Assembly: GCF_003334385.1 (NCBI RefSeq)
Contig: NZ_QOWN01000139.1
Reading direction: 5' to 3' (one strand)
Length of the DNA: 977 bases
Origin: Escherichia coli
GTDB lineage: Bacteria; Pseudomonadota; Gammaproteobacteria; Enterobacterales; Enterobacteriaceae
Shown here: piece after piece, positions 1-276 of the stretch
How positions within the stretch are numbered: position 1 is the stretch's first letter
Layout of the letters: every line of letters starts with the position of its first letter
Notes under the pieces: model-generated
Told to the model about the DNA's origin: nothing
The model's database searches: none
What the model saw: the letters and a program-made list of their open reading frames with translations, nothing else
Made by a program: the position numbers and the translations under genes

Positions 1-276
1 GTCATAGGCATCACGCAGGGCGTTCTGGGCCTGATTCAGATAAAAATTACCCGACATGGAAATCTCGGACGACGCCCCCAGACCGTTGATGTTCTCCTGC
101 TCTGTGGAGCAGAGCGTGGTCACATCAATATCCTGTTTCTGACCGGCGGTGAACTGGACTTCCTTGATGGTGCAGTCCAGGCGCAGATATTCCGCCTTAT
201 CCATAGTTTCAGCAGTCGCCGGGGCAGATGAAATCATCACCTGCGTCAGCTGTGAGCGTTCATACAAAGCAGACAT
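1..276 (-). CDS. Probable major tail (tail tube) protein, N-terminal 92 codons; 3' end lies beyond the left window edge
   Basis: Not in the supplied ORF track because there is no in-window stop. ATG at 276..274 (minus) is preceded by a canonical AGGAGG (281..286 on +, read on minus) with a 4-nt spacer. My manual translation is MSALYERSQLTQVMISSAPATAETMDKAEYLRLDCTIKEVQFTAGQKQDIDVTTLCSTEQENINGLGASSEISMSGNFYLNQAQNALRDAYD, with no stop through position 1. The product call rests on synteny (the gene after the tail terminator in siphovirus modules is normally the major tail protein) and on the strong independent RBS. I do not recognise the sequence family with certainty. Confidence 0.6.
   Translation of the reverse strand, partial: MSALYERSQLTQVMISSAPATAETMDKAEYLRLDCTIKEVQFTAGQKQDIDVTTLCSTEQENINGLGASSEISMSGNFYLNQAQNALRDAYD

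Follow-up and report, generated by a model that had tools for sequence, protein, structure and literature searches.

In phage lambda the tail tube protein gpV is encoded between the gene of the terminator U and those of the G/GT chaperones, and in phage HK97 the protein recorded as major tail subunit is Gp12 (NP_037706.1). Here we analysed a 977-nucleotide stretch of Escherichia coli DNA (RefSeq assembly GCF_003334385.1, contig NZ_QOWN01000139.1), hereafter called the window, in which the lambda gpV slot is taken by a reading frame running off the left edge. This partial coding sequence (276..1, minus strand) comprises codons 1-92 of a major tail tube subunit of the HK97 Gp12 type, as assigned by its open frame and by homology, and it is almost certainly the 5' end of the major tail tube gene of a lambdoid, HK97-like (Hendrixvirinae-type) E. 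coli siphovirus or prophage. An earlier sequence-only reading of this DNA had proposed a probable major tail tube protein at this place; the finding is correct and already known, as this gene is annotated by RefSeq and in the records of HK97 and HK544.

The 92 residues encoded in the window share 77% identity with HK97 Gp12 (E 2e-53) and match PHROG families 11009 (E 5e-63) and 158, the latter named 'major tail protein' (E 1.2e-40). These comparisons place the fragment in the HK97 Gp12 family. As the window stops at codon 92, the continuation was read in near-identical surrogate loci; in E. coli 2013C-3033, residues 1-92 of a 'major tail subunit' of 238 aa are identical to the fragment, and this full-length surrogate is 68% identical to HK97 Gp12 over 234 aa without a gap (E 9e-121). 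Homologues of the N-terminal domain (N-domain) amount to 271 proteins across the Enterobacterales, with 52 invariant columns. All 32 diverse N-domains compared with Pfam match Phage_TTP_11 at E <= 0.001, their matches fall in tail-tube families only, and no non-tube family was found in the N-domain of any of these 32 homologues. With its position after the tail terminator gene, these matches bear out the tube assignment, and homology to a different kind of protein, which the sequence-only reading had foreseen as grounds for dropping its proposal, did not emerge: the near-identical full protein is a tube protein followed by an immunoglobulin (Ig) domain. The role of major tail subunit is suggested by the database annotation of HK97 Gp12 and by a solved relative, gp24 of Shigella phage Sf11. 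Public names for proteins of this family are inconsistent or wrong, among them 'fibritin protein' (vB_EcoS-569R3 and relatives), 'tail fiber protein' (mEpX1), 'Phage neck whiskers' (Fraca, and also the molecule name in PDB 9OCC) and 'immunoglobulin domain-containing protein' (RefSeq).

The three coding frames of the window share the minus strand. The frame that opens at ATG 276..274 continues through 92 codons to base 1 with zero stops, as had been described, and it went unlisted because the ORF listing omits open reading frames (ORFs) that have no end in the window. The chance of a 92-codon open frame is roughly (61/64)^92, about 1% per frame in random sequence, which is weak evidence alone, and short plus-strand ORFs overlap the region of the partial coding sequence (56-142, 149-328 and 228-353). 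Both points could be taken to favour a chance open frame behind a fortuitous AGGAGG, with no gene at all. We give this explanation no credence, because it would leave the 271 homologues, their invariant columns, the PHROG match at E 5e-63 and a gene order kept across genera without an account; it is homology, to the two PHROG families and to HK97 Gp12, that places the frame beyond chance. An inverted repeat within the coding sequence (86-128, 74% complementary) was likewise considered and judged to be chance.

Upstream of the start codon, a Shine-Dalgarno (SD) sequence AGGAGG is found at 286..281 (minus strand), separated from the ATG by the 4-nt spacer CAGA; the motif that had been reported there is therefore real, with a small correction of its coordinates. 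Its duplex with the 3' end of 16S rRNA has a predicted energy of -10.3 kcal/mol, compared with -6.9 kcal/mol for ATG 687, the one further start that the window contains in full, and the claim of the best initiation context in the window thus holds in a comparison of two starts. The stretch that extends this frame 5' of the ATG, as far as the stop at 343-345, falls within the intergenic hairpin and T-rich region, and M1 together with the MSALYE N-terminus is conserved among the homologues, which identifies ATG 276 as the true start. The sequence-only reading had further argued that a strong, independent ribosome-binding site (RBS) fits a protein of high copy number. The independent start stands, as initiation after a gap of 53-66 nt is conserved among the lineages compared; the strength of the SD is specific to this lineage and not a family trait, since pairing energies in eight other lineages range from -4.3 to -9.3 kcal/mol.

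The full-length surrogate displays weak Pfam matches over residues 8-141, all of them to tail-tube families (Phage_tail_2, 5.5e-5; Phage_TTP_11, 1.2e-4; Phage_TTP_12, 0.01), while residues 151-227 form a C-terminal Ig domain (Ig_3, 1.6e-8; I-set, 4.9e-7) that also matches Ig_2. The N-terminal part has the tail-tube fold of the Hcp/gpV superfamily, in which a beta-sandwich is flanked by a single helix and a long loop protrudes; of these elements the window encodes the first strands of the sandwich, a loop at residues about 45-67 and the beginning of the helix. The loop residues are modelled with low confidence in both structure models, yet they form the most conserved segment of the family, with G45, Q46, K47, D49, T53, C56, S57, E59, E61, N62, N64, G65 and L66 all invariant. 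The mobile loops of lambda gpV are reportedly ordered on polymerisation (the title of PDB entry 6p3e points the same way), and by analogy we infer that residues about 45-67 are the long loop that contacts the neighbouring rings and the lumen. Two forms of the family occur at high N-domain identity, one consisting of the tube domain only (about 147-154 aa) and one of tube plus Ig domain (about 234-251 aa), as seen when locus L005 (4001-4465) is set against the 2013C-3033 prophage, locus L001 (7702-8418). The Ig domain is thus optional in the family and was gained or lost as an accessory module. Phage Ig-like domains are generally proposed to be accessory surface decoration, and this is the likely role, by analogy, of the Ig domain encoded outside the window.

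The place of the gene is conserved well beyond E. coli. In the window, ATG 276 lies directly downstream of the tail terminator gene, with a gap of 66 nt. In the 2013C-3033 prophage the tube gene is followed, after a 14-nt gap, by a 124-aa chaperone gene that ends GCC AGA AAA AAG TAG and contains the heptamer A_AAA_AAG at 8798-8804, through which a -1 slip would join the T ORF in frame and yield a 226-aa G-T fusion; a gene for a 1080-aa tape-measure protein (TMP) lies downstream. A_AAA_AAG is a classic -1 slippery site. An identical heptamer and G-T fusion are found in a Leminorella prophage (about 64% protein identity), and the -1 frameshift is explicitly annotated in the HK97 and HK544 records. 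A strict search of the last 90 nt of the chaperone gene in a Klebsiella relative (L003) found no canonical X_XXY_YYZ heptamer; at about 5100-5145 this gene ends ...GCT AAA GCA AAG TAA and the T ORF starts 3 nt later. The chaperone pair with a programmed frameshift, which the earlier reading had expected downstream, is accordingly present in the homologous loci. The order gp10-like gene, terminator, tube, Phage_TAC_1, Phage_tail_T and tape measure is shared by E. coli, Klebsiella, Leminorella, HK97 and HK544, and the Morganella, ECP1, Burkholderia and Aeromonas phages, whose genes are less fully named in the records, also keep the nine-gene order.

This arrangement also bears on a second alternative, namely that the gene encodes another paralogue with the tube fold, such as Dit, a tail-tip or baseplate tube initiator, Hcp of a type VI secretion system (T6SS) or the tube of an F-type tailocin. 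A slot between the terminator and the G/GT chaperones is that of the major tail protein, whereas Dit and the tip proteins come after the tape measure, where separate tip genes resembling lambda M, L and K are indeed present. The identity to HK97 Gp12, an annotated major tail subunit, points the same way, and the complete head genes (terminase, portal and capsid) that accompany the tube gene argue against a tailocin or T6SS origin. We regard such a paralogue as exceedingly improbable, and a major tail tube protein as the reading that fits the locus.

A small extra gene is found between T and the tape measure in some loci: a YebO-family gene in the Klebsiella prophage (L003, 5521-5754) and the gp15 'moron' in HK97 (L092, 3204-3392). 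Judged from these sequences, the T/tape-measure gap appears to be a recurrent insertion site for morons.

Several points weigh against identifying the frame as a functional tail tube gene. When searched alone, the 92 residues find no significant match in the PDB (only MglB at chance level, E about 0.4-0.6), and their N-domain profile does not reach significance with lambda gpV (2k4q and 7t2e, E 0.9-1.5). The fragment has no match in NCBIfam, where the full protein reaches a tube model at 17.7 bits, below the cut-off of 27. The AlphaFold2 (AF2) model of the N-domain is of moderate confidence (pLDDT 65), and evidence obtained without homologue-based profiles is weak throughout. The intactness of the source copy is moreover inferred from relatives only, many E. 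coli copies sit in possibly defective prophages, and the portal gene of the closest genome is marked as frameshifted.

The last of these points raise the alternative that the family is right and the copy a remnant: the prophage would be cryptic and decayed, with the ORF truncated or disrupted just past the window edge and no functional tube protein made. Up to eight copies of the module per E. coli genome and the frameshift flag on the portal gene of the closest prophage would agree with this, as would the many partial database entries for the protein, though these come mostly from short contigs. Against it, none of the three genes carries a stop or frameshift inside the window, the 92 residues are identical to those of intact copies, and the RBS and the hairpin are intact. 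Beyond the edge, a scan of IMG/VR viral contigs returned near-identical loci only (97-99% identity) and was used for intactness and not for diversity, for which divergent loci were drawn from GenBank phage records. In all 80 of these close relatives the ORF is 230-238 aa long (238 aa in 71, 237 aa in eight and 230 aa in one), and a stop just left of the window, which would have left a tiny ORF, occurs in none. A remnant is therefore a quite unlikely account, and an intact major tail tube gene is the one we retain.

By analogy with lambda gpV and the tubes of other siphophages, the protein would form hexameric rings, nucleated on the tip complex and stacked around the tape-measure protein as they polymerise, with the chaperones G and GT presumably assisting assembly and the product of the upstream gene probably capping the finished tube. 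Loop residues about 45-67 would become ordered on assembly and make the ring-to-ring and lumen contacts. A tape measure accounts for about 1.5 Å of tail length per residue, and the 1080-residue protein would thus predict a tail of roughly 160 nm, built from on the order of two hundred subunits. The need for well over a hundred copies per virion would explain why the tube gene starts independently, 66 nt after the preceding gene and from a strong SD of its own, unlike its low-copy neighbours, which are expected to be translationally coupled.

The gap in front of the tube gene holds a terminator-like hairpin, found by a consensus scan at 293..313 (minus strand) and adjoining the RBS region, with the stem-loop CCCGC-CGCGT-GCGGG (313..299) followed by TTTTTT (298..293). 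A hairpin with a T-run is found in 9/9 lineages, the E. coli Stx phages among them as well as a Burkholderia phage with only about 35% protein identity, and it ends 19-25 nt before the ATG. The stem sequences differ yet remain complementary (AAGCTGC/GCAGCTT in Morganella, GGCCCGC/GCGGGCC in Burkholderia), and equivalent hairpins lie at 1693-1720 in L092 and 2462-2487 in L087. The element, which lies inside an antiterminated late operon, is not new, as it is already annotated as 'putative terminator' in HK97 and as 'rho-independent terminator' in HK544. Taken as a whole, the 81-nt intergenic region is no more stable than its shuffles (z 0.62), and only the local 15-nt hairpin stands out. Two Rfam matches were attributed to chance, both driven by the hairpin: isrK at 293-396 on the minus strand (17.7 bits against a gathering threshold of 50, E 0.07-0.3), to which the U-run also contributes, and Trp_leader (16.5 bits against 41). 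A consensus scan detected no sigma-70-like promoter in the window.

Whether the conserved hairpin serves the expression of the tube gene, beyond acting as an incidental terminator, is a tentative proposal that we hold to be possible and rather doubtful. In lysogens, such a device could keep transcription that is not antiterminated out of the tail genes; it could provide a stable 3' end for the message of the head and connector genes; or its U/A-rich tail could enhance translation from the independent RBS, and so set the large excess of tube protein over its neighbours.

Other features of this kind were observed in and around the spacer. A second, weaker terminator-like site, AGGTCACGGTGTGACTT followed by TTTCTTTTTT, lies at 340-356 (minus strand) and overlaps the stop codon of the tail terminator gene. 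The pyrimidine-rich spacer, with a T-rich run at about 318-340, has a T-run whose length is polymorphic among close relatives, and it contains the mismatch at position 321 described below. Further along the module, the 2013C-3033 prophage has a hairpin AACCGC-TGAG-GCGGTT followed by T7 at 9113-9140, after gene T and before the tape measure, so that terminator-like hairpins flank the tube-G-T block of the E. coli prophage on both sides. A hairpin also follows the gp15 moron of HK97 and HK544, in the corresponding position; the Leminorella locus is without it and has a gap of 9 nt between T and the TMP gene.

The two other genes of the window lie upstream of the tube gene. The tail terminator, or tail completion, gene is complete (343..687, minus strand, 114 aa), and its product matches PHROG 347, tail terminator, at E 2e-17 and Pfam PF11367 (Tail_completion_gp17) at E 1.7e-7; RefSeq names it 'tail completion protein gp17'. 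PF11367 was formerly DUF3168, and the neighbour that had been called a DUF3168 tail terminator thus agrees with this assignment. The 3' part of an HK97-gp10-like tail completion (Neck1) gene occupies 684..977 on the same strand, with a match to PHROG 5 at E 4.8e-20 and a supporting RefSeq annotation. Its stop overlaps the start of the terminator gene in the motif ATGA (687..684), which looks like translational coupling, for which such an overlap is usual, in contrast to the 66-nt gap in front of the tube gene.

The window is 99.9% identical to the prophage of E. coli 2013C-3033, from which it differs only within the intergenic spacer, at position 321. Its identity to 92 phage records, for the most part of Stx1a-, Stx2a- and Stx2c-converting phages, is about 99%. 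The records annotate the three genes as HK97-gp10 family morphogenesis protein, tail completion protein gp17 and major tail subunit. Of 5426 complete E. coli genomes, 1245 carry the module, and the phages sharing it include many Stx1/Stx2-converting ones; Lys8385Vzw (L002), BP-4795 and 2851 are examples of phages with this module. By sequence identity, then, the window comes from a tail module that many lambdoid prophages of E. coli have in common, both Shiga-toxin-converting ones and others. Searches of the available literature collection found nothing relevant on virion proteomics of these Stx phages, on phage 2851 or on HK97 Gp12. The head module of the Stx-phage type is itself unusual (L001, 1435-6168; L002, 921-5168), in that a 645-aa 'major capsid protein' directly follows the terminase and precedes a very long 'portal' region, the one marked as frameshifted by RefSeq in L001, which is split into two coding sequences in Lys8385Vzw.

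Beyond a correct annotation the significance of these observations is small. Frames cut off by a window edge vanish from the ORF listing without notice and should be recovered, and what has been gained here is an edge-truncated gene and not new biology.

The closest described system is that of HK97 Gp12 and its Hendrixvirinae orthologues, e.g. gp10 of HK544, which like the protein described here combine a tube domain with an I-set-type Ig domain. The HK97 neighbourhood is also alike, with Gp10 and the Gp11 terminator upstream, the Gp13/Gp14 chaperones with their -1 frameshift downstream, and a hairpin before the gene. The lineage studied here differs in a stronger SD (AGGAGG at -10.3 against -7.4 kcal/mol in HK97) and in the hairpin that HK97 and HK544 have just after the tail gene, which is missing where only 14 nt separate the tube from the chaperone gene; the head module of the Stx-phage-type prophage is likewise unlike that of HK97. 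Further away, the tail tube protein gp24 of Sf11 (PDB 9OCC) has an N-terminal part too diverged to match the 92 residues directly, and it belongs to a different phage type with a tailspike-decorated tip (PMC12724387). Finally, lambda gpV (PDB 2K4Q, 6P3E, 7T4F and 8IYK) shares the fold and the layout of an N-terminal tube and a C-terminal Ig-like domain, and it is the top Foldseek match of the full-length protein (E 4e-9), with both domains aligned. Identity in these structural alignments is 16-19%, and the C-terminal domain of gpV is a Big_2-type Ig domain, different from the Ig_3/I-set/Ig_2 type found here. Assignment to the strict lambda gpV family (Phage_TTP_12, PF16461) was rejected, at E 0.01 for the full length and 0.0022 for the N-domain and with 10 of the 32 homologues at E <= 0.001, and the full-length profile reached gpV at only E about 0.05-0.07. 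With an N-domain profile at E about 1, the link to lambda gpV is made by fold, and on the structure models the relation is one of fold and superfamily only.
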